From Wickerhamiella versatilis (taxonomy: Eukaryota), in NCBI GenBank assembly GCA_030867685.1, contig JAQOWU010000007.1:620001-684000 (forward strand): a stretch of 64,000 nucleotides of DNA. The letters are read 5' to 3'. The first letter of the stretch is position 1. Every line of letters begins with the position of its first letter. Both the position numbers and the translations under genes were made by a program. Shown piece by piece: positions 10,553 through 62,403 of this stretch. Under the pieces are notes generated by a model, which was not told the DNA's origin, ran no database searches, and saw only the letters and a program-made list of their open reading frames with translations.

Positions 10553-10936
10553 GTGTGATTAATTATGTCACGCGATCCGCCGTCAAGTTTGAGTCGCAGG
10601 AGAGAATCACAAATCACAAAGACTCGCACGGGCACGCGACTAAAAATCCAACCAAACTTATTTTTGGCTTTGCAGATGCAATTGCCATGCTCTACCTTCT
10701 ATGAAACGTTACGGCGTACAGGAACCTAACTTTCATTCAGTAAGCAACGTAAAGTATCAGTCATTAAATTAGCCAGCTACCAATGGCACAAATGGCTAAA
10801 TGAGAAACGGATCTCCTGGTACTAGATGAGTGACATAATAGCAGTTTGTTGCTCGAATATATTTTCATCCCAAAATCCAAGAAGAGATCCGGAACCGACT
10901 GACTGACTATAATTATTACTCACAAGACCATCGTCA

Positions 10937-11530
10937 ATGTTCCGTCTGAGTTCACGTTTTTTCTCCTCCTCGGGAATCAGGCTAGCGAATTTTGATCCTA
11001 AGGCCATGCGGGCCCAGATGGATAAAACGCTGCAGTTATTCAGCTCGAGGATAAAAGATATCAAAAGTGGGTCCACATCGGCAAACCGATTTTCCGGGCT
11101 GGAACTCGAGCTCGACCACGGTAAGAGCCAGGTTCTAAAAAACATTGCTACTGTGGCACAGCGAGGCAATAAAGTCTCTATTGTCGCTTTTGATCCGCGT
11201 CATGTGAAGTACATACAAACTGCCATTGTAGGGCAGCTGGGATTACCAGCAGAGCCCTCGCCGAAAGACCACCAGTCTTTAAATGTTATTATTCCACCGG
11301 CAACCACGGATAAAAAGGCAGAGACACACCGTCTAATCAAGGATGCGTACGAGCAGTTGCGGCACTCGAGCCACCGACAGTCGCTGGCAACCATTCGCCA
11401 TAAGTATATCAGCCCACTGAAGAAGCAGAAGGGAACGTCACAGAGTGAGCAAAAGAAGGACATTGCCGAAGTCGAAAATACAACCAAAATTTACAACCAA
11501 AAACTAGAGGATATATTCAAACGAGCATAA
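10937..11530 (+). CDS. RRF1: Mitochondrial ribosome recycling factor
   Basis: Basic presequence, LKNIATV, L.V.IPPAT and SLATIR, with an RRF-like helical layout. Confidence 0.75.
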   Translation: MFRLSSRFFSSSGIRLANFDPKAMRAQMDKTLQLFSSRIKDIKSGSTSANRFSGLELELDHGKSQVLKNIATVAQRGNKVSIVAFDPRHVKYIQTAIVGQLGLPAEPSPKDHQSLNVIIPPATTDKKAETHRLIKDAYEQLRHSSHRQSLATIRHKYISPLKKQKGTSQSEQKKDIAEVENTTKIYNQKLEDIFKRA

Positions 11531-11600
11531 TTTTACTTGACGTAGTTTCACCTCAGTGGATATATAGTCACATTAGTAATAGTACATTTCTAACCGAGGT

Positions 11601-11990
11601 ATGGATGAAGACAACAAGTTTGATACAGACGATGAGAAAGTGATAAAGCTGAATGAAAAAATAATTGATGAATATAAGAATGCAGACAAGGACTCACTCC
11701 AAGGATACCGTTTATTGTTTCTCGAACAGCTTGGCAGAATCAGGAAGGAAACTGGGCATAATAAGGAACAACGACGACTAGCCCAAACTGGCAGATTCGA
11801 CTTAGTTCCTGAGGATAGACATAATCTCCCACGGTATTCTGAAAAGCTCTACGAGGCAACTAATAGTGATGATCTTTTTGTTGAGGAACGCGCTGAGGAT
11901 AGATCAGCAGTTGTATCAAGTGAGAGACCACCACCACCTACGGAGGCCACACTACCATGGGGTGGGGAAGCATTTTCTACAGCATACTAA
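11601..11990 (+). CDS. Hypothetical acidic protein
   Basis: ATG-initiated 129-aa ORF between RRF1 and MSC7. Family not recognised. Confidence 0.6.
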   Translation: MDEDNKFDTDDEKVIKLNEKIIDEYKNADKDSLQGYRLLFLEQLGRIRKETGHNKEQRRLAQTGRFDLVPEDRHNLPRYSEKLYEATNSDDLFVEERAEDRSAVVSSERPPPPTEATLPWGGEAFSTAY

Positions 11991-12047
11991 CAACATTTAG
12001 CCATAATAGCGTGAGCAGCATATACATCATTAAACCTTATATTATTT

Positions 12048-13811: not shown

Positions 13812-14092
13812 CCTCACGTACGCTGGTGCCTTTTTCAGAGATTACGTAACCATGGTGTAGTTCGGTTTGTTGGTGGGTTCGAGCAGTAAATTACACAAGC
13901 ACGTTGAGTTCGTAATGGAGACGACAGCCTTTCATAATAATTGTACCTTTATCAAAGATTATTTTCAATAACGACTAGTAGCGACCTTATATCGATGTTA
14001 TGATTCAATGCTGAGCGCGAGATCACGAGCACGGGCGAGTTAGGACCTTATAATGCAATATCTCACTGCCCGAACATAGAAAACCACACATT

Positions 14093-14437
14093 TCATCTGC
14101 AATTCAAAATACGCTGAAGACGTGCGATCTCGTCAAGCTGCCATTGGCGTGCTGGCCTCTGATCTTGGTGTCGTTTCATGGTGGCTGCTTCATCCTCAAG
14201 GGTCTTCTCAGCATTGGTGCATAATTCCTTCAATTTCGAAATTCCTGCTTTCACCTGCTCAACGTGGTGATTGCGCTCCTCGGCCAATGGAGAATGGGCA
14301 GGGCGAAGTCGACGCACCTGGCGCAATTGCGTGACTTTGGCGAGCCGGGAGCTTTCACTCGCAAGTCCTGAGAGCCTCTGATTGATATGCGCGAGTTGTG
14401 TGGTATGTTGGGCTAATAATTTATCCAAAGCCTCCAT
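14093..14437 (-). CDS. Hypothetical coiled-coil protein
   Basis: ATG-initiated 114-aa helical ORF. Family not recognised. Confidence 0.55.
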   Translation of the reverse strand: MEALDKLLAQHTTQLAHINQRLSGLASESSRLAKVTQLRQVRRLRPAHSPLAEERNHHVEQVKAGISKLKELCTNAEKTLEDEAATMKRHQDQRPARQWQLDEIARLQRILNCR

Positions 14438-14587
14438 GCTAAGAAAAAAAGTGAGGGAAGAAACACTGCGCGACCCACTCAGGTCGCAACGAATATCTCA
14501 TTCATGCACCAAGAAGCAATCTGCCAAGGTCAAACCATACAGGCTATAACTGGACTCAATCATTAGTGGTGCATCATTTTGCGTTCC

Positions 14588-14635
14588 CACTCACACTCAC
14601 ACTCACACAGTAACTGTAACTATAACTATAACTAT
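14588..14635. repeat. Adjacent hexanucleotide microsatellites (CACTCA)n and (TAACTA)n
   Basis: cactcacactcacactcacac followed by taactgtaactataactataacta. Confidence 0.8.
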
Positions 14636-14761
14636 CTAAGCCGTGGCTGGCACCATTGTGCTTATAGCAACTGCAATATTATGGAAGAACACAATATAGT
14701 CGTCATTAATCTGTTGCAGTGGGAGTAGTTTCGCACTGCATACCCTTCCCTCGGATTGAAT

Positions 14762-15100
14762 TTACTTCGGTATTTCTGTAGTCGTGGCCTTCTCAACCAA
14801 GAACTTGATGACCTTGCTCTTGTTGCCCTCTGACTCCTTCTTGAGAGTCTCTATCTGGCCCTGAGCTTCGCTGCTAGCTTGGGCTTCCGCATCTTCCTCG
14901 GAGCGCTCATCACTCTGAATGCTGCTCTTGAACTCTTCTTCCTTCTTCTTCTTGTACTCGTCAACTTCCTTTTGGGCATCGACCTTGGAAGCCTTCACAC
15001 GCTGAGTACGGTAAGCTCTGGCCTCCTGAACAATCTCCTGTGCCTTGTGCTCAGCTTCAAGCAGCTTCTGAATACCGGCCGAATTAGATGCTGTCGACAT
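14762..15100 (-). CDS. VMA10: V-ATPase subunit G
   Basis: SAGIQKLLEAE..AQEIVQEARAYR and DAQKEVDEYKKKKEEEF. Confidence 0.93.
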   Translation of the reverse strand: MSTASNSAGIQKLLEAEHKAQEIVQEARAYRTQRVKASKVDAQKEVDEYKKKKEEEFKSSIQSDERSEEDAEAQASSEAQGQIETLKKESEGNKSKVIKFLVEKATTTEIPK

Positions 15101-15134
15101 TACAACAATCGAACTATTACGTCAGCGATGGTAA

Positions 15135-25460: not shown

Positions 25461-26699
25461 TCAGTCTATGGTCATACGATCCCGTGGAAGTCTTCCAGCC
25501 ACTTCAATGTAACGTACACCTGTGTGAGCCTGTCGGCGAGACTCCAGAATTTCTGAAGCCATCCCCGCAGGTTCCCGTGTGCTGTGAATCCAGGCTGGCG
25601 GGAGCTGTTTCCCTCCACCTAGACGAATGGCTTCAGGAAAGCCGCTAGCAGACTTAGACCCTTTAACTAGGACGATTGTCGACATTTCTCGCGCCAAAAT
25701 TACTGCACCTGCTTGGGAAGTTGCGCGAAGCCGCGGCGAAGGGATGAATAAATGATTCTTGACGCACTCATTCGCTCCAAGTCTAGCTTGTCTCAATTCT
25801 GAATCGTTGTTAGTATAATAGCTGAGCTTAAACGGATAAACTGAGCTGGTCTTAGCAAGGATCTGCCGTGCACTGGAACTACGAAGATTCGAGGTTATAG
25901 TGAAGTCCCGGGTGTATATATCTGGTGCATCTAGCGAATACCCCACGGTTCCAAGCTCCCCTATCTTGTGTTGGCCTGAAGCGAATTGGATATCTACTAA
26001 ATAAGTCTCGCCTGGAAGAACCTCCCAACTTTCCTCGTTCTTGATCCTCTCCTCCTCATCCTCTTCAGTATGCCACTGCACGACCTTGGCATCCTTTTCG
26101 TCCACGGAAGGTTGCCCGATAACAAACCGCCGCACCCTTCGAACACGGGATCCTGGGCTGATCTCGACGCCAAAAGCATTAGATATTTGTTCAACAGTGG
26201 TTTTTATTCTCTTGGGTGTCACCGGTCCGGATATTGGGTGAGTGTCACTGAGTACCGAGGACAGGAGCGTCAACACTGCTTCGGTGGCTAGGAATGCACC
26301 GGCAGCAGCATCTGCACCCAAACCGACATATGGTTCTGTTGCCTGTCCCTCCCTAATAACGATGGTGTGACCGCATTGTGCTGTGTAGCCATCAATGAAG
26401 ACGCCCAATGTTATCTTGACAACATCGCCCTCGAAAACAGTACCACCTTGGAAGGTATCGATTACTTCTGGGGCAAGACCACTTACCATCTCATTCTTGC
26501 AAATTTCTGTGGGCAATGCGATACCCCGTTCCTCAACGCTCTTATAGCATATGGCTATTTGACTTCGCAGAAAATCGTCGGTGGCACGGCAAACATCGCC
26601 TATTGTCTGCTCGCCTATTGCCTGCCCAAGACTCTGGATGGCAAACAGAAGCCCGGACTGCGCAATGGTGCCTGCAGTTCGGTACTTTTCAATCGACAT
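25461..26699 (-). CDS. ARX1: Pre-60S export factor Arx1 (MetAP fold)
   Basis: KYRTAG.IAQ, ERGIALPT, GDVVKITLGV.IDGYT, SRVRRVRRF and WIHS. Confidence 0.85.
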   Translation of the reverse strand: MSIEKYRTAGTIAQSGLLFAIQSLGQAIGEQTIGDVCRATDDFLRSQIAICYKSVEERGIALPTEICKNEMVSGLAPEVIDTFQGGTVFEGDVVKITLGVFIDGYTAQCGHTIVIREGQATEPYVGLGADAAAGAFLATEAVLTLLSSVLSDTHPISGPVTPKRIKTTVEQISNAFGVEISPGSRVRRVRRFVIGQPSVDEKDAKVVQWHTEEDEEERIKNEESWEVLPGETYLVDIQFASGQHKIGELGTVGYSLDAPDIYTRDFTITSNLRSSSARQILAKTSSVYPFKLSYYTNNDSELRQARLGANECVKNHLFIPSPRLRATSQAGAVILAREMSTIVLVKGSKSASGFPEAIRLGGGKQLPPAWIHSTREPAGMASEILESRRQAHTGVRYIEVAGRLPRDRMTID

Positions 26700-29660: not shown

Positions 29661-29781
29661 TTGTCTATCTCCCACGTAAAGAATAATACTTAATATTGAT
29701 TATGAGATTGGCCAGGCATACAATGTCTTACAATGTCTTAAGCTTATAGAAAAGTTTTCTCCGACAAGAAAAGATAAATTA

Positions 29782-30825
29782 CTATAATAGTGATTCCGAT
29801 AGCGCCAGCGCCTGCTTAAGCTCATTTACAGCTGTGGTAACATCATCGTAGTTAAGAGCAGAGATAGCCCATTTTGCATGCTTCTGAGCTGCCTCTTGCT
29901 TCTTCCCACGCTGTAAAATCGCATCGAAATCATTCTCTTTCGCAGTATTTTCACGAATTTGCCTATATGGCCTTGACTGCGTTTTACGTTGAACATGCGC
30001 ATCTTCCTCTTTTGCCGCCTTCTTATCTTTATTAGGTTCAAAGTCTCGGACGTCAGGGACTCTAGGTGGAGGAGGATAAGAGAATGGCACACCAGGACTA
30101 TCACCAGGGGCCTCCGGAAGGCCCTCAGGTGGCATATGTGGAGTTTCTGGAAGGCCTTCAGGGGGGACACTAGGTGTGTCCGGTAAGCTTACCTCGGGCT
30201 CTTCGGAGTCCTCCCCAGGATATGAGTGACCATCCTGGTTGGCGACTGACCCAACATTCTCACTATCGTTCTTCTCCTTTTCCTCCTGCTGCTCAGTATC
30301 TAGATATTCGAGCTCTTGATCCTCCTGAAACAAATCATTTGGGTTCTCTCCCGCCTTCACTGCCTTTAAAATGCGCGCAGCTTGATACTTTGCATATTTG
30401 ATTTTTTCCGACGATTCCGCACTGAGAGGCTGCCATATACGCTCTAGATCTAAAAATATTGCTGCAGCCAGCAATGTTGATGCTGTTGCTTTGCTGACCC
30501 GATGCTCAACTATGGCACGATCTCCACGGTCGAAAATGTTAGAGGCGAAGTTAGACACATATGCAAGTGCTGCATCTTTATCAGCCAGAATCTCTTTGTC
30601 CTCGGCAGATGCTTTAGCCTCAAGTTCCTCCAATTCAGACAACAAGGCGTTGGCAAACTCACTTACCTCTGGATCGCTCAGATGCAGCTTCGACTCAAGG
30701 ATTTCCTGAGCCGCATGCAAACGACAGTAATATGATATCACAGGCTCAACCTTGTTCAATTCGGTCGCTCGGGCAAGCACAGCCTGTACGAACGACACCT
30801 TTTGGGGAACTGCCTTGTCAGGCAT
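29782..30825 (-). CDS. VTA1: ESCRT/Vps4 cofactor Vta1
   Basis: PVISYYCRL and KIKYAKY (MIT domains), C-terminal AQKHAKWAISALNYDDV.TA (VSL). Confidence 0.93.
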   Translation of the reverse strand: MPDKAVPQKVSFVQAVLARATELNKVEPVISYYCRLHAAQEILESKLHLSDPEVSEFANALLSELEELEAKASAEDKEILADKDAALAYVSNFASNIFDRGDRAIVEHRVSKATASTLLAAAIFLDLERIWQPLSAESSEKIKYAKYQAARILKAVKAGENPNDLFQEDQELEYLDTEQQEEKEKNDSENVGSVANQDGHSYPGEDSEEPEVSLPDTPSVPPEGLPETPHMPPEGLPEAPGDSPGVPFSYPPPPRVPDVRDFEPNKDKKAAKEEDAHVQRKTQSRPYRQIRENTAKENDFDAILQRGKKQEAAQKHAKWAISALNYDDVTTAVNELKQALALSESLL

Positions 30826-31152
30826 ACTTCGAGCAGTCAAGTTTATTTGTCAGCAAATTGGCTTAAGCATTATGTCCGTTAAACTTGCTTTATGGTCTGC
30901 CGGATCCTACCACAGAAGCACAGTGTATATTATGAATGTATTGACTCGTACTAGTGTAAAGATTAATATTCATACAATTTTAATTTGCATCAGATTTTGT
31001 TTTTTTGCGATAGTGCTTAAGAATAATAGCATTACAATTTCATTTATTGACACTCTGGATCATTGGTATGCTTTTTAAACCGCCATTTCACTTTTTTTGC
31101 AGTGGAGAGTATCTGTCATCTATCTAAGGCTTAACTACTGCTGACGCACAAC

Positions 31153-32427
31153 ATGCATGTTGCAGATATCATCCGGCAAGTAAGGGATGGCTCGTCGGAG
31201 TTGACCAATGATGATATTCGCCAATTCGTTGGAGGATTACAGTCAGGAAAAGTATCAGAAGGGCAACTTGGTGCTTTCCTTATGGCAGTGCGTTTGCAAG
31301 GTCTTTCGGCATCGCTAACCGCTGAGCTTACTCTTGCAATGAGAGATTCGGGACAGGTTATCCAGTGGCCATCTACTGACGCCAAAATTATAGATAAGCA
31401 CTCCACCGGAGGCGTGGGTGATAAAACTAGTTTGATCATAGCTCCTATTGTGGCCAGTTGCGGTGTGTTGGTACCCATGATCAGTGGCCGAGGTCTTGGT
31501 CAAACTGGTGGGACTCTTGACAAGCTTGAGTCTCTCGAAGGTTTTAGAGTTGATCTCAGTTGTACAGAGCTTGTCAACCAGGTGAGCAAATTAGGGTTAG
31601 CTATTTGTGCGGCGGGTGTTGAATTGGCGCCTGTTGATGCGCAGATGTACGCATTGAGAGATGTTACAGCCACTGTTGATTCAAGTGCACTTGTAACGTC
31701 GTCTATACTTTCTAAAAAAATGGCTGAGGGTATTCATGGTTTAGTACTTGACATCAAAGTGGGTAAAGGGGCTTTTATGAAGACGCTTGAGGAGGCAAAA
31801 GAGCTCGCCAATTCGATCATCACTGCTAGCCGGTTTGCCAAAATCCGTATCACTTGTGTTTTCACCAATATGGATCGACCCCTCGGTAGGACAATTGGTA
31901 ACTCCCTTGAGGTTGCCGAGGCTTTGGAAGTACTTCAAGGTGGTGGATCAAAGGATCTTAAGGACCTATCTCTGGTATTAGCGAGGGAAATGCTAAAGCT
32001 AGCGGGTGTGCCGACTGAAAATGCAGAAAAGCAACTGGCCAATGGATCTGCTTTATCCAAATTCTCAGAAATGGTGCAAGCACAGGGCGGCACCGGCATC
32101 GACTTGAAACCTCTTGCAGCGTCTACACCATTGCTCAGCAATGTGTCTGGGTACGTTACCGAGATAGATGCTCTCAAATTGGGCTACCTTGCTATGCGGC
32201 TAGGTGCAGGACGTACTCTTCCCAAGGATACTATAGACCATGGCGTGGGGTTTAAGCTACATGTACAAGTCGGCGACAGTGTAGAATCTGGTTCGAAGCT
32301 GATTGAAATTTTCCACCGCAAGAGCCTTTCTCAAGAGTTCTGCAAGGAAACGTTACTAGCTTTTTCAATAAGTGATGAACCGTGTAATATAGATCCCCTT
32401 ATCTTAGATATATGGGATTCTTCGTAA
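31153..32427 (+). CDS. Thymidine/pyrimidine-nucleoside phosphorylase (NP-II family, DeoA/Pdp-like)
   Basis: DKHSTGGVGDK, PMISGRGLG.TGGTLDKLES, YALRDVTATVDS, SILSKK, LDIKVGKGAFMK and LGAGR....D.ID..VG. Confidence 0.95.
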   Translation: MHVADIIRQVRDGSSELTNDDIRQFVGGLQSGKVSEGQLGAFLMAVRLQGLSASLTAELTLAMRDSGQVIQWPSTDAKIIDKHSTGGVGDKTSLIIAPIVASCGVLVPMISGRGLGQTGGTLDKLESLEGFRVDLSCTELVNQVSKLGLAICAAGVELAPVDAQMYALRDVTATVDSSALVTSSILSKKMAEGIHGLVLDIKVGKGAFMKTLEEAKELANSIITASRFAKIRITCVFTNMDRPLGRTIGNSLEVAEALEVLQGGGSKDLKDLSLVLAREMLKLAGVPTENAEKQLANGSALSKFSEMVQAQGGTGIDLKPLAASTPLLSNVSGYVTEIDALKLGYLAMRLGAGRTLPKDTIDHGVGFKLHVQVGDSVESGSKLIEIFHRKSLSQEFCKETLLAFSISDEPCNIDPLILDIWDSS

Positions 32428-32463
32428 TAATTAGAATATTTGCTATTCGTTTAAAAGAAAAGT

Positions 32464-35400
32464 TTAGCTTTTAGAATTTCCATTGGAGATGGGTTGGCGC
32501 TTGGATTTCCGACCCTTCTCTTTTTCCAGCATGGCCTGTTGTTTCTGCAACTCTTCGACGGCCTTATCGTCATCCAATAACCAATAAGCCACCTCGCGAC
32601 CTGGCTTGGCAACACCTCCCGCAGACTTGCCTCTATTAGTTCCTTCCATAACCACCTGCTGTACATGCTCTTTCTGCTTGGCTCTGTCCCGCATACGTTC
32701 CTCAATGGTGCCCTTGACGAGAAGACGATATACAGTAACTTGTCGCGTCTGTCCTAGTCGGTGAGCCCGATCCATGGCTTGTGAGTCAATAGTAGGGTTC
32801 CAGTCCGAATCATAAAATATGACCGTGTCAGCAGCCGTCAAGTTAATACCAAGACCACCTGCACGTGTGGACAGAAGGAAAACGAACAGCTCCGGCCTTG
32901 TTTGCCAGTCATTAACCAGATCGCGGCGGTCACTCAATCGTGAAGAACCGTCTAGACGGAGATACTTATATTGGCGGAAAGTGAGGTAGTCTTCCATAAG
33001 GTCCATCATGCGTGTCATCTGGAAGTAAATCAACACCTTATGGCCATTGCGTTTTAAGTCAGTGAGGAGTGTATCAAGGGCATTAAGCTTGCCGCTGTCA
33101 GTGACAAAGCGAATCATTGATGGCATAGTGATAGGCGCGTAGCCACGAGGGGAGTATGGCAATAGATCGTGAGGCGGGAAACCATCGCCCTTCTTGTAAT
33201 AATCCCACTCTTGGTCAAGACTCAGCTCCCACAACGACTTCGGCGGCACCAATTGCTGCTGGTGGATAGTATGCGACCGGTCAGAACACAACTCGGTGAC
33301 TGGCGGGGCGACCACAGCAGGCTGGGCAAATTCTAACCCTCTTGCTTGTGGCGGCTCTACAATTTCCAATGGACTCTTCTCCACATGCAGGCTCTCAGCC
33401 CTATGGAGGATATCACTATGGGCAATGCGACACAGCTCTGATGCAGACGTGTTCGTAAGTAATGCCTCAGTTTGCCTCGATTGAGGCTTCCATACAGTTA
33501 ATCGCCGAATTAGAGGATTTTCAAGTTCAGAGCGATAAACAAGTTTCGGTAAGTCATATTGTACAGGATTGCGCGCACTATACGTGATATTCATTGCATC
33601 GCGGTGTCCTCCAGACGTTGCGAACGAGCAAAATGCTAAAGAAGAGGCTACATCGGTTCGTTCAAACAAATCAGGATGGTTACAAACTTTGCGGAATTGC
33701 ATTACGAGATTCATAAGACTCTGGGCATCATCAGAAAGAAGATCCTGCAGCCTTATTTGCGACTTGAGCAGCCGATAAAGAGCCAACTGTCGTCGGGTGA
33801 GCTGGCAATATACATCCACCTCAATTTTATCACCCAGTTCCTGCTGAACATTACTTTTAACTCGGCGCAGCATGAATGGTTTTAAAATTAGGTGCAAACG
33901 CTTCAGTTGAGCCTCGTTGAGCTGGGAATTTTTCGTTGCGTGCGACTCGATATCCTTCGAGAACCAGTCACTAAATTCCTCATGCGAATCGAACAGTGTG
34001 GGCATGATAAAATGCAGCAAGGCCCACAACTCCTGCATACTGTTTTGAATAGGCGTTCCTGTAAGCAGCAGCCTGTTACGGCACTGCATACCAAGCAAAG
34101 ACTTCCACCGGGAACTATGAGAGGATTTTATCGCTTGCGCCTCATCAAGGATCATATATTGCCACTTGATACGGTTTAAGTACTGCGCATCCGAGACAAC
34201 AAGTTGGTAGTTTGTAACCAATACATGAAACGGAGAGTCGCGGGTATATCGCAATTGCCTACGATCCCAGAATTTTCTTAGCACCTTACGATCCTTACTG
34301 GACCCCCAGTATGGCAAGACCTTGAAATCTGGGACGAACTTTGTGATCTCCTGTTGCCAATTATGCAGTGTGGATGCTGGAGCAATTACGATGAACGGTC
34401 CCCATATATTGTGGGTTTCGGCCAAATACGCCATGACTGAGATTGACTGCACAGTTTTACCGAGACCCATTTCATCTGCTAGAATTCCGTTGATACCTTG
34501 TTCATAGAGATTTGCCAGCCATGTAAGACCCTTCAATTGGTACTCCTTCAAATGGCAATTGAGCATCTCTGGCTGAGGGAGCGTTTCATCGCCGAGCGAT
34601 GTCGGATTCTGGAAACCATCATCACCGTCATCAAACTGCCTAGTGCGGGCTTTTGCCGCAGCTGCGGCCTTTTCCGCATTCGCCTCGGCAGCCTTTTGAA
34701 GCTCACTCTCATTGTCACCATCAAAGTCAAGCCCCTTCGCGGCAGACTCATCTGGCGGTGATGCACCGGTTGCTTTGCCAGTCTTTGATGATACAAAGTG
34801 CGTGTAAAGCTCTGTCTGGGTGATCAAGAAATTAAGTTTACGGGCCTGCCTCTTCGACTCGCGTTCCTCTTCCTCTTTCTTAGCATGCTCCACTGCTTCC
34901 TTCTCAGCCTTCTTACGTGAATCACGCTCCTCCTTCTCATTGCGCTTCCAGAAAGCCATCATTTCGCGCATAGCGCGACGTCCTCGGGACTGCAAATCTT
35001 TCAGGTGCTTATTGGTCTTCACCTGGTACTTTCTGGCCTCCTTTGCAGCAAGAGTTGCCGTTTTTCTGGCGTTGGACAGCTTAACCGCCTGCGACGACTG
35101 GTATATCTTGTGGGCTTTGGTGATATCCTTTCGCGAGAGCTCACGCCAAATATCTGTGAATACCTGGGATTGCGGTGTCGTATTCTGCCGGGGTGTACGG
35201 TTAACCACCTGCGGGGACGAGGCCCGAGTAGATGGTGTCTCCGGTCTGCTTAATCCATGGGACGCCGCAACATTTAATAGCGCTGGATCTGCCTCAGCAT
35301 TGGCTGCTCTCGGGGTGGGAAGAGGCAGGGAGCCTGGCTCAGGTGACTCAAGCCGTTGTCGTTTACCTCTTGTCCGGGTAGTTGCGCCACTTCCTGGTGT

Positions 35401-35781
35401 AGCCCGTTTGCGCCGTCGCGCAGTCCCATCCTGTTCGTGCTTTGTCGCCCGCGACTCTGCACGCGCCTCCAGTTGAACCCAGGCATAGGCTTCGAAGGCA
35501 GCCTTTTTTTGCTCATATCTTTCAGAGGACTTCGCAAGGTATTCCATGCTCCTCTGTTTCGCCCTTCGCTCTTCATAGTCTCTCACAAGGTCAAAACGAG
35601 CCTCCTGGGACGCGAGGTACTGCGTAAATTCCTTGATGTCTGCCGCGGAGGGCGGAACCGCGGCTACCGCATCCAGAGTGCCCTCGGGCCGTATACCATC
35701 GAGCACTCGATTAGAGGCTATTGGTGGTCCACTCAGAATTTCACCAAAGGCCATAGCATCCCGCCTAGCCGGTGACGACAT
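32464..35781 (-). CDS. INO80: Chromatin-remodelling ATPase Ino80
   Basis: DBINO/HSA region ([16 protein letters not shown]), [19 protein letters not shown] and [11 protein letters not shown]. Confidence 0.97.
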
Positions 35782-41772: not shown

Positions 41773-42495
41773 ATGTCCATACTACGTGAATTCACAATGT
41801 TCTCAGGGGAAGAAGATGATCCTGATAGTCTTCCATCGTCTCCTGAAGTTCTACACCTTGACCAGGAATTGACGGACGCCCATATATACCGCCCCACCAG
41901 CAGCGAAGTGAATGCAGTTATTGAGGAAGCATCTATAGAATTGAATGCAAATGTGACGCTAGTCGAAGTTGAAGGACATGCTGAATTAACTAGAGGCTCG
42001 ACGATTCTTAGTTCTCCAGAGAGGAAATTGCACAAGCAGGAGGATACGTTGACCAACAGTAGTATTGACAAGCTGGAGGTTCTTCAGGAACCCACAGTCT
42101 CTTCAAATATGTTGCCCAAGCCGAGAAAGATTTCTCTTAACACCGCGAAGTGTAGGCAAGAAGTTATAGACGAGACCCCACGGTTGTTGGCTGACGCTAA
42201 AAGCAGAGTGAAAGGCAAGAGCAAGTGTGGCAGTAATTGCCCTTTAAGCTTCAGCACTCCATATGAAATGGCTATTCATTTGGATCAGTGCCATCCTAGA
42301 GATTATCGATGCTTTCTTTGCCCTCACTCAGATTGTGCCTGGTCTGTTGTGGGATTCCATAAATGGGCTTCGTGCAATCGTCACATAAACGCAATTCACG
42401 GCACAAGAGACTTTGAGTGCAAAATATGCCACCGAAAGTTTCCGCGTTCCGATTCATTCCTCCGTCATGCGCGAAAGTCGCACGGCCGGCAGTAG
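41773..42495 (+). CDS. C2H2 zinc-finger transcription factor, Rme1-like
   Basis: Three fingers, including CP...C.W.VVGF......RH...H and C..C.RKF.RSDS..RH....H. Confidence 0.7.
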   Translation: MSILREFTMFSGEEDDPDSLPSSPEVLHLDQELTDAHIYRPTSSEVNAVIEEASIELNANVTLVEVEGHAELTRGSTILSSPERKLHKQEDTLTNSSIDKLEVLQEPTVSSNMLPKPRKISLNTAKCRQEVIDETPRLLADAKSRVKGKSKCGSNCPLSFSTPYEMAIHLDQCHPRDYRCFLCPHSDCAWSVVGFHKWASCNRHINAIHGTRDFECKICHRKFPRSDSFLRHARKSHGRQ

Positions 42496-42594: not shown

Positions 42595-43722
42595 TTAATG
42601 ACTTGCTGCAAAGTCACCCACTGCCTGCATCCAGCATCTGACGTTCTCAACTGCAGGCTTTTCTGGATCCAATGGTGCCAAATTCTTACGTATCAGGAAG
42701 GATTGCCTTCCTGATGGAATCTCGATCTTCAGAGTTAGGAATGGTAGTGTCAATGAAAATTCGCTTTCACTGAGATGGCATGTGGTGAGAAATCCATAGC
42801 CACCGATATGCTCTTGTAGTTTCCTAACAAATCCATCCAGCGTACCGCTGGTATGCTCCAATGTTACACTTTCAGTCGCTAAATGTTCTATCTGAGCGTC
42901 CGAATCTTTCAGGTTTTCTCTAAGCTTCTCCAAATGCTTTCTTAGATCAGTGACCCGTTCGGTGGTGCTGGCGAGCAATTCCTCGGTTCTGTCGGATGCA
43001 TTATCATCATCATTCTCCTCCTTAAGTGCTGCGAGCTCTTCGCGGAGTGCAGCTAACCTTGCAAGACCTGCTGCTTGGTTTCGCTCAGAAATTCTTTTGG
43101 CCTGCTCATCCTCCACCAAACTCTCTGAAACATTCTTCAAGGCAGTCAGGAAAATCCTACCTGCATTCAAAGCATTATCATTGCGAAGCCTTAACCATTT
43201 GTCTGCAAGTGATGCACGATTAATGGGAGCTGCTGGATACTTCTCCGCTGCTAACTTTGCCTTCTCCTCATAGACGTCACGGGCCATTTCCTGAAGCCGT
43301 TCGAGCTCTCTACCCCACGCAGCCGCACTAGGGCTATTCGAATTTGCACCTGAGTTCACTTCTGTCATATTAACATGTCGACGTAGGATTTCTGAATCCT
43401 TCTTTTCCCCCACAATTTCCTCAAGAGAATTCATTGTGACTTTTCCTGATGCCCGAACTGGGGAAGACTCCAGTAAGGAATCATCAACTGGTGGAGCTGC
43501 AAAGGTAGGTGGCTCCGTCAAAGGGTCCTGGTCCATACTGGAAATATGAATATCGTTTTTTGACTCGTTTCGGGCAATCGAGTTGTCGACTTCATCATTA
43601 GCTACTCGAGTAGGGCTCTCTGTTTCTTCGCGTTCTGAACTAGAAGTTGCATGGCTTTCTTCAACACGGCGCCGATGCCGCTGTGACGGCGAACTTACTG
43701 GTGAATACGCGGCGCGTTTCAT
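42595..43722 (-). CDS. Coiled-coil protein, possibly a reduced Spc105/Spc7-like kinetochore protein
   Basis: Disordered SP-rich N-terminus, long coiled coil and a small globular C-terminus. The coding call is solid; the family call is weak. Confidence 0.45.
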   Translation of the reverse strand: MKRAAYSPVSSPSQRHRRRVEESHATSSSEREETESPTRVANDEVDNSIARNESKNDIHISSMDQDPLTEPPTFAAPPVDDSLLESSPVRASGKVTMNSLEEIVGEKKDSEILRRHVNMTEVNSGANSNSPSAAAWGRELERLQEMARDVYEEKAKLAAEKYPAAPINRASLADKWLRLRNDNALNAGRIFLTALKNVSESLVEDEQAKRISERNQAAGLARLAALREELAALKEENDDDNASDRTEELLASTTERVTDLRKHLEKLRENLKDSDAQIEHLATESVTLEHTSGTLDGFVRKLQEHIGGYGFLTTCHLSESEFSLTLPFLTLKIEIPSGRQSFLIRKNLAPLDPEKPAVENVRCWMQAVGDFAASH

Positions 43723-44835
43723 GGGCCCCCACCCCTAAGCCTATATTACGCGAGATATGATGTTTCGCGTGTCGGCGGATACAGGACATGATTTCATCGA
43801 TGGAATCCTTTCACTCCCCCAGGAATCATTTAAGTCACATTATGGAATTGAAATTCCTCGAGCCATATAAAAATAAATACGTAGGGACGATGCAGCCAAT
43901 TCCTAGCAGAAATTTTACTTTTATATCATACTTACTTAATATACTGCGGCGAGAATGGTGCCGTAAAACGCTGCGACTGTGGCTGAATTGCATTTCTGTG
44001 ACGCCAAAATTGATTCATGACTCGCAGATACCTTCGGCATAGGTACTTGATATTCGAAACAAGGTTCGTGCGACCGTCTTATTATAGCAATCTATTTGGT
44101 TTATTTGTGATAGAGTTCATGGATGTTTCCAAAATGAACACCTAATTAAGTTTGTTTTTCGAACATCAGTGGCAATTGGTCTCAGAAGACTTGCAATCAT
44201 TTGTTATATCACAGGTAATGCATTTATATCTAGTATGATATTGCTCATCATAGCCACGCGTCGTGTCCCCAGAAAAGCATCTATGAAAACCTAAACAATA
44301 TGACAGTACGTCAACACTACGTCATACGGTATGCTCCTCTCCTCCCGGGATTCGTGGCTGAGTGGGACTTTCGATCTATCTGTAGTGGTCACCCATAGGG
44401 TGAAAAGGACTGCACTATAGACCATTTGGGGTAGCTATCTGGATATGGAAGTTCTTAATTTATTTTATGCACCTTACTCTATGGGTAGCAAGCACGGGGT
44501 TGCCTTATCGACAATCATTACATAATAACGTACCATAACATAGTAATAAAATATACGCGACAGTAAGACCACCACCCCCGCGTTCGGACGCCGACTGTCC
44601 CTTTTCCACGTCTTAATATAGAAGTGGCTAAACTACGCGTCTGAGTGGCTCTGATGTCTTAGTGTCGTGTAATTATTTTCCATGCAGCTAATAATTATTT
44701 AAAGTTTCTAGTACCCAGGAGAGTGGGGGTACGGCACCTCGGGGCGTTCCATAGCTGACATAAGCCAACTGTCACTGCTAAATAAATAAGCCCCTCCGAC
44801 CCACACTAATTCCCAACTGCATTCTTGCTACCAAA

Positions 44836-45150
44836 ATGAGACTTTGGCTATTGCTAGCTGCGGCAGTGTATGCAGCTCCATTCGATGGGAGCTCGCTGGA
44901 GAAAAGGGCCGACAAGGAGGACTATATCATCGTATTTTCTAAGGGGTTGGACACACCAGACCGGGTTGTGCGGAGTCTCGAGGATTCCATTAAAGGCCAA
45001 GGTGGCCAAATTCACTACGAGTATCGAACGGTTATCAAAGGATTCAGTGTATCTATGGATCCATCGGCCATGGAACGGGTCAAAGCTATGAATGACGTTG
45101 ATTTCCCGTTTGTCGTGGAGGTTGACCAACAAGCACGAACTATGCTCTAG
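44836..45150 (+). CDS. Peptidase inhibitor I9 (Pbi2/YHR138C-like) with signal peptide
   Basis: Hydrophobic leader, LEKR, YIIVF, GG.I..EY..VIKGFS and VE.DQ. Confidence 0.8.
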   Translation: MRLWLLLAAAVYAAPFDGSSLEKRADKEDYIIVFSKGLDTPDRVVRSLEDSIKGQGGQIHYEYRTVIKGFSVSMDPSAMERVKAMNDVDFPFVVEVDQQARTML

Positions 45151-45543
45151 CGCAGGCGCGGAGATTTATGATATTATATTGAGATATTGAGCCTCGCGTT
45201 CGGGGAGATGGATTTGCATTTTATTTTCGTTCCCCGGAGGTAGAGGCAGAAAACCGTTACGTTAAATACCAGCATAATATATTTTCTTGAGGCTCGGAGC
45301 AAACGGGCCCGTTCTAACAAACTTTGACTAGGTTAGGAATAACGTATTGCTATTATATGTCCTATATATAGTCCTTATGGATATGGGTTACTGACAGCCA
45401 CCATAGAGCAACCGACGCGATGACGCATTTTAAGGGCACCATCCTGGTTGCAACTTACGTTTCATCCTATACATACATATCTGTCGGTCCTTTTAGCACT
45501 AAAATCTGTATTAAGGGCTTTTTATCTGATGCCTGAGACCTGC

Positions 45544-45912
45544 TCAGTCTCTTTCTAGGTTTATATTCTCCCTTCCAAATTTTGCGTACAGCGATTTCTT
45601 CAAGCCGTCCATTCGCGTGGCTTCGTCGTCAATTTGCGATTCACGCTTCTTCAAGCGTTCCTCCAGCCCCTCTTTGCGTTTTTCAAGACGCTCCATAACT
45701 TCTTGCTGTTTCAGATAGACAAGTGCGTCGCCAATGCGGTAAGGGATCTCTTCATCCTCGTCCACGAGTTCCAGCTCGAGTGAGACGTCATCCACAAGCT
45801 CCATCTCGGTCTTTATGGATGCAAGGGCATCTTCGTGACCATTTAGGCGGCTATTGAGCTTTGAAAACTCGTTTATATTCTGCTGCTCCGTCCAGGTCAC
45901 CTCGGTGCTCAT
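45544..45912 (-). CDS. GIM3: Prefoldin subunit 4
   Basis: EVTW.EQQNINEFSKLN, IPYRIGD and LK..LYAKFG..INLE. ATG at 45912. Confidence 0.92.
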   Translation of the reverse strand: MSTEVTWTEQQNINEFSKLNSRLNGHEDALASIKTEMELVDDVSLELELVDEDEEIPYRIGDALVYLKQQEVMERLEKRKEGLEERLKKRESQIDDEATRMDGLKKSLYAKFGRENINLERD

Positions 45913-46025
45913 GTAATCAATTAGTGCTTCGGTGAGTGAGACAGAAGCCGGTGCAAGGTGGCAAAAAATTAAAAAAAAATTGCATATAACCATATATATA
46001 TAAAAAATAATATAACTTAGCGAAT

Positions 46026-46457
46026 CTAGTTGGCGTCCTTCAAGGACAGGACCTCACCACGCAGGCGGCGAGCAAGCTCGATGTCCTTCTCCTGGATAGT
46101 GACACGCTTGGCGTGAGTGGCGCAAGCATTGGTGTCCTCAAACAGGGAGACGAGGTAAGCCTCAACTGCTTCCTGCAATGCACCAATAGCAGAAGACTGG
46201 AAACGCAGCTCAGCCTTGAATTCCTGAGAGATCTCACGGACAAGACGCTGGAAAGGAAGCTTGCGGATCAACAATTCAGTCGACTTCTGGTAACGGCGAA
46301 TTTCTTGCAGGGCAACGGTACCAGGCTTATAACGGTGAGGCTTCTTGACACCAGAAGTGCCAGGAGTTGACTTACGGGCAGCCTTGGAGGCAACCTGCTT
46401 ACGGGGAGCCTTACCACCAGTGGATTTCTTAGCGCGGACGTTCTTTGTGCGAGCCAT
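46026..46457 (-). CDS. Histone H3, divergent variant (143 aa)
   Basis: Full H3 fold ([45 protein letters not shown]) with many substitutions. It lacks the long N-tail and loop-1 insertion of CenH3. Confidence 0.97.
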
Positions 46458-47236
46458 CTTAACAACCCTGAATTATTAAAGTGGGAATTGCTGAGCTTTT
46501 ATACTCTGGTTGGGAGATTACATCACATTATTCCATCACGCGGAGATTCCACTTCGCTCACGTTAAGCATGTACCTTTAACTCGTTAGAACACTAGTTAA
46601 CAAGATCAAAGCATAGCCATTATCGTAGATTTGGATGGAATTAGTTTAATGAGCCTATACAAATAACCATGCATTGCTCTTGAGCTGTCTTATTTTCCTA
46701 TCGCCTATCGTCATTTAGTTTCGTGGGTTGGGGTCCTGATGATCAGAGAACACACATTATATAAGCAAAAGGTAAGTTAGGGCTTCTTTTGGAGGCAAGG
46801 CGAGTGCGAACTTAGCACAGGTGGGTGCCTTCATGGCCGTCAAATTCAAATAATTATAGTACGAAGTAAGCTCTTAATTTTCGTTTATGGCACTGGCGCT
46901 CTCATTGTGACAGTCAAATAACTATTTTTCTATTCATTCTAGCGACATGATATCCTTTAAAAGCCCATGCAAGAGGATAATACTTGAGAGCTGCAATGCT
47001 GTGTTCAATTTGGGATTGCTGGCCGAAATTTGTCGCTCACAGCCCCCATTTAGTTCAGATTAAAAGTTTAGGATCAGACCAAAAAAAAGTTTCCAATTAT
47101 TCACCGGTTGGAGTTTAGTGGGAACGTCTGGTACATCCCAGAGTCGCTCTATATCCCTCTCTTTGGCCAGCTTAACTTGCCACAAACCTCGGGACCTGAT
47201 AGTTTGACATAATCACTCAGGTCCAAGAAGGTATGA

Positions 47237-60993: not shown

Positions 60994-62403
60994 TCAATGA
61001 GTCTGGTTGAATTGCTGAGTTTGACTTGATGCCTGAAGATAGTTCTCATCGCAACCACAACCGCCATTGTCGTCATCGTACCCACCGTTATCATAACCAT
61101 AGTATCCCCCATTATTCCCATAACCTCCGTAGCCCCCGTAGCCTCCATAACCTCCGTGGCCTCCATAGCCTCCATAGCCTCCATAATTTCCTGAACCGCC
61201 GTAACCGCCGTAACCACCATAATCTCCTGGATTGCCACCATAACCACCATAACCTCCGTAACCACCATTATAGGCACCCGAGGTCTGGTAGCCTCCATTA
61301 GTACGATAACTGCCATAGTACCCGGAACTTCCATAACCACCATAACCACCATAACCGCCATAACCGCCATAGCCACCATAGCCACCATAGCTGCCATAGC
61401 TGCCATAGTTTGTATAGGTTGAAATATGTGACTTGTTTAATGTCAAAGTAGCAGTGTGTTCGGAAGGAGAAGCAGTAACTACCACAACGTTTGTAGTGGT
61501 CGCTACAGAATCACCCCCATTTGACATGGTAGATGGTAGAGTTACCACAGAGGGATAATAATTGGTGATAGTTTCTGCTGGAAGCGATGCAGTGTACGTG
61601 GTTGTGACAAGACTGCTTAAGATACTGACAGGGCCTGGCTCTGTTGGTAACCACCAACTTGATCTTGATGGGTCCAATGTAAAGACACTAGTAACTACTT
61701 CTGGTTCTGATCTTGTTAATTCAGATGACACCACCTGACCCGAAACGGTGACATACACGGTCGAAGTCTGCAATGTAGGCAATGCTGTGAATATAGTAGT
61801 GTAATAAGACTCAGTTTGTCTGGGTGGAGTGTACGATGGTTCTATATTGAAGGTACTGAATGATGAAACAGAGGTAGGACTCGTAGTTAAACCCCCATAT
61901 CTAGTTGATGGGCTCAGTGTGAAAGCATTTGTGGCTGCCCCTGGTTCTGTTATGGTATATTCAGATGTTATCACTTCACCTGAGACTGTAACATATACGG
62001 TCTCGGTTTGCAATGAGGGCAATGCAGTAAATATAGTACTGTAATAAGATTCTGTCTCTCCAGGATCGGTTACAGTGTATGTGATCGCGGAGGCATATGT
62101 AGAGCTACCTCCTTCAGTAACGGTAGTGTAAGAGGTAGACTTCTGTGCTGTAGAAACAACTGTGGTCGGTCCACCCACGGGAATGGTGCTTGATGCTGTA
62201 TCGGATACTTCGCTGTAAGAAGTGGATACGGCGCTGCTTGTTTGCCAGTATGGTGTACTATAGGTATCAAAGGATGGGGTTGGCTCATAGGATGGTGTCT
62301 CCAATGAATTCTTATGATGAAACCACCATTTTTCTTGAATTTCAGAGGAGGCAGCTGCATTCACAGGTACATATAATGCGGAAAATAGAGAAATGAGCAA
62401 CAT
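60994..62403 (-). CDS. Secreted Ser/Thr-rich protein with a C-terminal Gly-Gly-Tyr repeat domain
   Basis: Signal-peptide-like N-terminus, mucin-like S/T region with an internal duplication, and roughly 20 GGY-type triplets. Confidence 0.8.
   Translation of the reverse strand: MLLISLFSALYVPVNAAASSEIQEKWWFHHKNSLETPSYEPTPSFDTYSTPYWQTSSAVSTSYSEVSDTASSTIPVGGPTTVVSTAQKSTSYTTVTEGGSSTYASAITYTVTDPGETESYYSTIFTALPSLQTETVYVTVSGEVITSEYTITEPGAATNAFTLSPSTRYGGLTTSPTSVSSFSTFNIEPSYTPPRQTESYYTTIFTALPTLQTSTVYVTVSGQVVSSELTRSEPEVVTSVFTLDPSRSSWWLPTEPGPVSILSSLVTTTYTASLPAETITNYYPSVVTLPSTMSNGGDSVATTTNVVVVTASPSEHTATLTLNKSHISTYTNYGSYGSYGGYGGYGGYGGYGGYGGYGSSGYYGSYRTNGGYQTSGAYNGGYGGYGGYGGNPGDYGGYGGYGGSGNYGGYGGYGGHGGYGGYGGYGGYGNNGGYYGYDNGGYDDDNGGCGCDENYLQASSQTQQFNQTH
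61085..61410 (-). repeat. Coding 9-bp tandem repeat (GGY)n
   Basis: ccataacca/ccatagcca/ccgtaaccg-type units on the + strand. Confidence 0.9.

Follow-up and report, generated by a model that had tools for sequence, protein, structure and literature searches.

Thymidine phosphorylases (TPs) and pyrimidine-nucleoside phosphorylases (PyNPs) of the NP-II family are represented among described enzymes by DeoA of Escherichia coli, the PyNPs of Thermus, Geobacillus, and Bacillus subtilis, and the animal TYMP proteins, with further members in metagenome-assembled genomes (MAGs) of Myxococcota type. Single bacterial enzymes are a known phenomenon in yeasts. To our knowledge, yeasts are generally without thymidine kinase, and budding yeasts are textbook organisms without thymidine salvage, in which DNA labelling needs an imported kinase. 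The gene described here is a TP in a 64,000-nucleotide stretch of the budding yeast Wickerhamiella versatilis (GenBank assembly GCA_030867685.1, contig JAQOWU010000007.1, positions 620,001 to 684,000 of the forward strand), which was analyzed as a whole and is called the window below. It probably encodes a functional, cytosolic NP-II enzyme that was gained horizontally once this lineage had parted from its nearest sampled relative and whose codon usage has since become host-like, with a Myxococcota-type prokaryote as the likeliest source.

In fungi, the available part of a report on Botryosphaeria dothidea flags a TP of that species as derived from bacteria by horizontal gene transfer (HGT) (PMC11051394). 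As that part describes it, the B. dothidea gene resembles the yeast TP in that it lacks introns, stands singly, encodes a metabolic enzyme of prokaryotic character, and occurs patchily in fungi, but it belongs to another fungal class, and the likeness is one of description rather than of compared sequences (PMC11051394). Literature searches for HGT of a pyrimidine-nucleoside phosphorylase in fungi and for a TP in Saccharomycotina found no report. No main-text report of a budding-yeast TP was found either, and one could be listed in supplementary tables of HGT candidates from large surveys of yeasts.

The open reading frame (ORF) of the yeast TP has no internal stop, is preceded by an in-frame stop 7 codons 5′ of its ATG, and carries an A at position -3. 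A preliminary description, made from the letters of the window alone, had placed an intact, intronless NP-II gene of 424 aa between VTA1 and INO80, and its exact coordinates, together with Pfam and NCBIfam matches, bear this out. The gene and its domains are as follows:

31153 to 32427, plus strand: thymidine/pyrimidine-nucleoside phosphorylase ORF of the NP-II family (TP), ATG to TAA, 424 aa, intronless
31165 to 31353, plus strand: Glycos_trans_3N, N-terminal helical-bundle domain, aa 5-67 (Pfam PF02885, E = 2.6e-17)
31381 to 32010, plus strand: Glycos_transf_3, alpha/beta catalytic domain, aa 77-286 (Pfam PF00591, E = 7.5e-36)
32152 to 32343, plus strand: PYNP_C, C-terminal domain, aa 334-397 (Pfam PF07831, E = 1.1e-18)

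All three Pfam domains exceed their gathering scores. The protein passes the NCBIfam models NF004490 'thymidine phosphorylase' (483.5 bits; cut-off 269) and TIGR02644 (463.1 bits; cut-off 409.05) and stays below the cut-offs of two narrower equivalogs, TIGR02643 T_phosphoryl (397 versus 571) and NF004747 PyNP (391 versus 559). The best E-values are 5e-145 in NCBIfam and 4e-97 among solved structures (2dsj), and the family match is therefore far above chance. An alignment of 38 sequences has 40 invariant columns, and the yeast protein retains every one of them, including D81, K82, H83, S84, R113, T121, K124, Y166, R169, S184, K188, and K189; this set aligns residue by residue with 1brw, 2dsj, and 1azy and lies, together with M109, in the alpha/beta catalytic domain. 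The His, Arg, and Ser/Lys that the preliminary description had seen in DKHSTGG (residues 81-87), YALRD (166-170), and SILSKK (184-189) are thus among the invariant positions. An AlphaFold2 model has a mean predicted local distance difference test (pLDDT) score of 95.8 and a predicted template modelling (pTM) score of 0.94, and Foldseek aligns it with template modelling (TM) scores of 0.93 to 1brw (Geobacillus PyNP), 0.92 to 2j0f (human TP), and 0.92 to 1tpt (E. coli TP). By its domains, scores, residues, and modelled fold, the ORF is a complete member of the NP-II family. Its N-terminus is level with those of the bacterial enzymes, whereas cricket and snail TPs carry N-terminal extensions of ~130 aa; because it has no such extension, the yeast enzyme is expected to be cytosolic.

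Among solved relatives, bacterial PyNPs score highest (Thermus, 329 bits; Geobacillus, 309 bits), followed by E. coli TP (299 bits) and human TYMP (283 bits). Residues 203-219 of the yeast protein (VGKGAFMKTLEEAKELA), which the preliminary description had judged bacterial rather than animal in character, are near-identical to VGRGAFMKTLEEARLLA of the Thermus PyNP and unlike the cricket and snail sequences, so that judgement stands. In the available part of a study of the B. subtilis enzyme (5oln), five of seven pocket residues correspond to yeast D81, K82, H83, Y166, and K189, and Lys108 is listed among the phosphate binders (PMC13629066). The yeast differs from the bacterial PyNPs in having Met109 at the Lys108 position and Ala154 at that of Gln153. 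With E. coli DeoA (1azy/1tpt) it shares the three-domain fold, Met at the Lys108 position, the exact PMISGRGLG motif (AKMSGRGL in PyNPs), and SEGQ and W-containing motifs in the N-terminal domain, but identity is ~38-40%, the His of GLGHTGG and a pocket-wall Gln are replaced by Gln117 and Ala154, and the yeast gene is solitary on a eukaryotic chromosome rather than part of a deo operon. Met versus Lys at this position presumably sets sugar specificity, although a literature search found no paper that says so.

The highest scores of all are reached by Myxococcota-type TPs from MAGs (443/433 aa; P0018, P0047, P0003, and others), at 50-52% identity and 384-393 bits, the best in collections of 5.8 and 15 billion proteins. 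These have DYQ and no Trp where the yeast has EGQ and WP, a loop in the C-terminal region is ~13 residues longer in them, and the yeast TP is never nested among them. Animal TYMP (human 2j0f; cricket P0374; snail P0382) has the same fold, shares the E-x-Q-[LI]-G-A and W motifs, and is a weak sister in two of three trees, but it reaches only 38-42% identity and 283-303 bits and differs in the VG..AF.KT segment. As a separate observation on the family, seven other high-scoring relatives (P0249, P0284, P0313, P0329, P0321, P0337, and P0348) are 547-839 aa long, with 80-410 extra residues before or after the TP part, and by these lengths are fused TP forms.

The distribution of the gene carries the case for horizontal gain. 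A protein search covered 5.8 billion proteins, of which 7999 were scored and the best 120 inspected; among these, the yeast TP itself was followed by nothing above 51% identity. Its 90% cluster has two members, the TP and P0121 (98%, same species), leaving a gap from 98% to 51%. In the same collection, the conserved core of INO80 from this locus finds Logan relatives at 88, 71, 70, and 67% identity, and its best named relatives are Trichomonascus ciferrii, T. vanleenenianus, and Sugiyamaella lignohabitans, so the host is a Dipodascales-type budding yeast. Horizontal gain is favored because no TP lies between 98% and 51% while INO80 relatives reach 88, 71, and 70%, and the sampled yeast relatives would thus appear to lack the gene. 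Its gain would postdate the divergence from the relative at 88% identity in the INO80 core, with a long residence since.

Named matches are bacterial throughout. Among the best 120 of the protein search, all nine organism-named matches are bacterial MAGs (eight Myxococcota, one Gemmataceae), and among the best 120 of a profile search all 12 are (11 Myxococcota/'Deltaproteobacteria', one Gemmataceae); no organism-named fungal protein is among the best 120 in either. The profile was built from the yeast TP and P0245, a protein seen once, on a 4-kb Logan contig, and it brought up no further kin of the TP. An exhaustive HMMER search of 1.84 billion representatives of clusters at 50% identity, where relatives closer than 50% are not visible (the protein search covers that range), found the yeast TP representing its own cluster, then P0018 at 384 bits, and all others at or below 356 bits. 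Elsewhere, a single-protein scan of prokaryotic genomes gave one locus, at 43%, and an ESM Atlas search gave generic bacterial TP clusters only. An alien index, which the preliminary description had proposed as a check, was bounded by hand at about +18 natural-log units (best bacterial E of 7.8e-112 versus the weakest listed, 4.3e-104, among the best 120), a bound that is valid only if no entry without an organism name is fungal.

The TP is flanked by ordinary host genes, as follows:

29782 to 30825, minus strand: VTA1, left flank, host gene (Pfam Vta1 and Vta1_C)
30826 to 31152, no strand: spacer between VTA1 and TP, 327 bp, AT-rich (34.9% GC), head-to-head, presumed divergent promoter region, without repeats
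32428 to 32463, no strand: gap of 36 bp separating the stop codons of TP and INO80, which converge here, 19% GC
32464 to 35781, minus strand: INO80, right flank, host gene, 1105 aa (Pfam DBINO, SNF2-rel_dom, and Helicase_C)

The AT-rich spacer and the 36 bp to the INO80 stop were both measured as the preliminary description had reported them, the spacer standing against 46.4% GC for the window. Both junctions, which it had asked to see spanned, are bridged in X16, a metagenome run not flagged as a source of the window: one contig covers 29926-31804 (VTA1 and TP) and another 31893-32539 (TP and INO80), each with 0 differences, and the TP is therefore physically integrated in the host chromosome. 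A 47.9-kb contig of isolate run X5 spans 29700-33700 and is possibly the source of the window DNA itself. Positions 30400-33200 are present at half or more of sampled words in 19 of the 24 runs listed, these 19 coming from 11 studies, among them food-fermentation metagenomes and isolate runs of organism A; 12 rows are flagged as possible sources and hence are not independent. The TP is carried on contigs of up to 873,793 bp. Separately, run X19, whose label names another organism (B), contains a fraction of 0.56 of the words sampled from 30400-33200, so that a near-identical VTA1-TP-INO80 stretch may also occur under a second species label.

Among indexed runs that contain the stretch, no RNA run was listed. 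Transcription was read from two unstranded raw RNA sequencing runs of organism A (X23 and X24), from a strain 1-5% diverged from the window, whose reads cover most of the TP ORF; 1732 of 2024 and 1783 of 2083 reads, respectively, fall in the 95-99% identity band. Summed depth over 31308-32245 is ~19 in X23 and ~24 in X24, compared with ~117-135 for VTA1 and ~139-153 for INO80, so the TP is transcribed at about one-sixth of the depth of its neighbors. Read ends accumulate at 30820/30823, just within the VTA1 start, and adjoining reads in the TP ORF carry 4-5 further differences. The low depth at the 5′ end is suspected to come from the 95% mapping threshold dropping reads of a more diverged stretch, and it could instead come from an indel in the spacer of the RNA strain or from a downstream start of TP transcription. 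At the other end, depth drops from ~60 to ~10 across 32380-32647, and the predicted 3′ ends of the TP and INO80 transcripts must meet or overlap within the 36-bp gap 32428-32463.

Purifying selection acts on the gene. Counting from 40 of 95 inter-strain differences, 19 of the 21 listed for the TP ORF are synonymous when read in its annotated frame (1-15 in the other five frames), and it is from this that selection follows; for VTA1, nine of 16 listed are synonymous. The two non-synonymous TP changes, T75P and N142S, match P0121, the 98%-identical cluster member, which is full length, and the ORF is full length in both of two lineages ~2-3% apart. On a different point, the TP has at least 21 differences in 619 nt (31375-31993; 19 synonymous) and VTA1 has 16 in 1044 nt (nine synonymous) among the differences listed, and synonymous divergence, from these 40 of 95, looks about three times greater in the TP.

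Trees place the yeast TP with P0245 and agree on little beyond this. With FastTree (350 rows) the two pair at 91 and join a set with the cricket and snail TPs, also at 91. Under LG+C20+F+G4 with posterior mean site frequencies (PMSF; 83 rows), the pair (96) lies off the animal-containing set, on a backbone without resolution, and a 31-row Myxococcota-type clade (91) excludes it. A 44-row set was made by dropping 39 rows, mostly redundant Myxococcota-type, Actinomycetota, and unnamed representatives. The careful LG+C20 tree of this set has a log-likelihood (lnL) of -28171.74, with the pair at 99/96, given as ultrafast bootstrap (UFBoot) over Shimodaira-Hasegawa-like approximate likelihood ratio test (SH-aLRT) support, and it unites the pair, the animal group, and an eight-row Myxococcota-type/Gemmataceae/Vicinamibacterales group at 68/82. 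Constraining the pair to six Myxococcota-type rows gave a tree 16.2 lnL better than the quick free tree and is 3.3 lnL below the careful tree, with p = 0.41 in the approximately unbiased (AU) test, and neither placement is rejected. A separate grouping, that of Test A, was already present in the quick 44-row tree with support of 56. The pair appears in an open three-way split with the Myxococcota-type clade and a mixed animal/archaeal clade.

The mixed nature of the last clade is owed to P0320, one of its members, which is 99% identical to a gene binned in a marine Euryarchaeota MAG and, inconsistently, in a Yoonia MAG. At least one of the two bins is wrong. Because P0320 sits on a contig with genes densely packed on a single strand in prokaryotic style, the animal-containing group is not purely eukaryotic. 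Attraction among the long branches of the yeast TP, P0245, and the animal-containing group is a real risk and likely, and the alignment holds no indel uniting yeast and animal TPs. On the Euryarchaeota-binned contig L090 (2008-4308), P0320 begins 9 nt after a gene for a 2-oxoglutarate and Fe(II)-dependent (2OG-Fe(II)) oxygenase on the same strand, a pairing reminiscent of thymine oxidation after thymidine cleavage.

Several observations weigh against a functional enzyme gained from a bacterium. In no tree is the yeast TP nested in a bacterial clade, its supported sister being P0245 only, and the careful tree joins the pair weakly (78/69) to the six-row animal-containing group with cricket and snail. 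GC content (0.467, z = -0.40) and GC content at third codon positions (GC3; 0.414, z = -0.58) are typical of the window, and in codon-usage distance the gene ranks 23 of 35 window ORFs, as a host gene would; no repeats, tRNAs, Rfam families, or mobile-element traces were found flanking it. With composition so ordinary and no such traces nearby, distribution is the sole foreign mark, and the absence from relatives was read from a protein collection, not from genomes or the VTA1-INO80 interval. Two of the seven B. subtilis pocket residues are altered (Lys108 to Met109 and Gln153 to Ala154), and Gln117 in GLGQTGG replaces the His of GLGHTGG. RNA depth is ~0-3 over 30906-31307 in both runs, a stretch that takes in part of the spacer and the initial 150 nt of the ORF, with ~0-2 over 31040-31307, and because the library is unstranded and 5′ depth is near zero, a sense transcript over the whole ORF is not proven. 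The bacterial origin put forward in the preliminary description accordingly holds in part: no counterpart is seen in sampled yeast relatives and the top named matches are bacterial, but the trees show no bacterial donor clade and the composition is host-like. Since the search ranking is bacterial while the trees allow an animal-allied placement, calls in the style of an alien index alone overstate the case.

A less likely alternative is transfer from another eukaryote, in which the donor was an unsampled lineage, that of P0245's organism or one related to animal-type TP, rather than directly a bacterium. P0245, the only supported sister, is known from its single 4-kb contig and has no close prokaryotic match, at 38-52% in prokaryotic species genomes scanned by peptide pattern (41-45% over full length) and 37-51% in JGI metagenomes, where the best match is partial; host-like codons would need no amelioration if the donor was of similar composition. 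Such a donor is nevertheless doubtful. The clade that suggests it includes the Euryarchaeota-binned P0320 and is a likely product of long-branch attraction, the yeast protein shares neither an indel with animal TPs nor their N-terminal extensions, ~130 clusters, none demonstrably eukaryotic, outscore the animal TPs (~303 bits), and human TYMP scores well below Thermus. That the yeast TP and P0245 form an unsampled eukaryotic lineage allied to animal TYMP, whether as an ancient opisthokont enzyme kept in few fungi or through transfer between eukaryotes, is unlikely. Were it true, and the host without thymidine kinase, the yeast would be able to use or detoxify thymidine, deoxyuridine, and analogues of nucleosides without a kinase in food fermentations rich in DNA.

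Vertical descent, in which this lineage (and perhaps the host of P0245) kept an ancestral opisthokont or fungal TP that almost all other fungi have lost, fits the fully host-like composition, the terminal branch of ~1 substitution per site, and the weak clustering with animal TPs, and the available part of one study describes the distribution of TP across domains as sparse and hard to interpret (PMC4177761). It is distinctly unlikely, however, as all other budding yeasts sampled, even the one at 88% identity in the INO80 core, would need to have lost the gene; no organism-named fungal protein is among the best 120 in either search, the animal-containing clade is of mixed domains, and a Myxococcota-type placement is statistically equal. 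That the gene is an artefact or a dead passenger, through bacterial contamination, chimeric assembly, or decay to a non-functional remnant, is hardly credible: although the TP is squeezed in 36 bp from the INO80 stop, with low RNA depth and its first 150 nt nearly bare, it has a full-length ORF in two lineages, listed differences that are mostly synonymous, all catalytic residues, a confident fold, and a yeast-like composition unlike that of a GC-rich bacterium. Contamination and misassembly were rejected on the X16 contigs that bridge both junctions and on the presence of the stretch across 11 studies. Horizontal acquisition is thus the most economical and most likely reading of these sequences, with a bacterial donor plausible and no source likelier than a prokaryote whose enzyme is of Myxococcota type; we infer both the direction and the donor. 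From host-like composition and the long branch together, a recent arrival from a GC-rich donor is unlikely.

Activity, substrate preference, and physiological role are what we infer from the sequence and the family. The enzyme would act as a homodimer whose alpha and alpha/beta domains close around a pyrimidine (deoxy)nucleoside and phosphate, with K82, S84, and T121 predicted to bind phosphate, R169, S184, and K188 to bind the nucleoside, and H83 to be catalytic. Cleavage of the glycosidic bond would turn pyrimidine (deoxy)nucleoside and phosphate into base and (deoxy)ribose-1-phosphate. Thymidine and deoxyuridine are expected to be preferred over uridine, because Met109 is as in E. coli TP and the protein matches NF004490. 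A role in scavenging pyrimidine deoxynucleosides can reasonably be proposed. The catabolic direction would be the useful one if this host, like yeasts generally, is without thymidine kinase. Uracil could pass to UMP through uracil phosphoribosyltransferase (UPRT), the released pentose phosphate could enter central metabolism, and thymine would be excreted or, where the fungal route through thymine-7-hydroxylase (T7H) and isoorotate decarboxylase (IDCase) exists, oxidized to uracil. The available part of one source reports this route from some fungi (PMC4787775).

An acquired and selected TP would add an entry point for pyrimidine deoxynucleosides to a yeast that run labels place in food fermentations, and it may alter the response of this yeast to fluoropyrimidine nucleosides. 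It would also be one more dated case of single-gene acquisition shaping yeast metabolism.

The surroundings of the locus are otherwise unexceptional. Beyond VTA1 and INO80 lie, by Pfam, a RasGAP gene and a CLC channel gene, and a Pfam scan of 30 further window ORFs of at least 200 aa assigned a family to 26, all of ordinary fungal housekeeping functions. As the preliminary description had said of deoB and deoC, no deoB/deoC-like gene occurs among the 35 window ORFs of at least 200 aa searched with Pfam, and none of the 30 further ORFs is nucleoside-related. Pfam gave no family at E <= 1e-5 for the remaining four, which are 240-469 aa long (25461-26699, 41773-42495, 42595-43722, and 60994-62403). 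ORFs of at least 200 aa occupy ~75% of the window, as in a compact yeast genome, and three stretches of 1.3-3.5 kb each (43723-47236, 10553-12047, and 13812-15134) are without such an ORF and without a tRNA or Rfam match; they may hold short or intron-containing genes. INO80 itself, 1105 aa here and 1087 aa in the closest relative, is ~1200-1500 aa in most named yeast homologues and, to judge by these lengths, is shortened in the TP-bearing yeast lineage.

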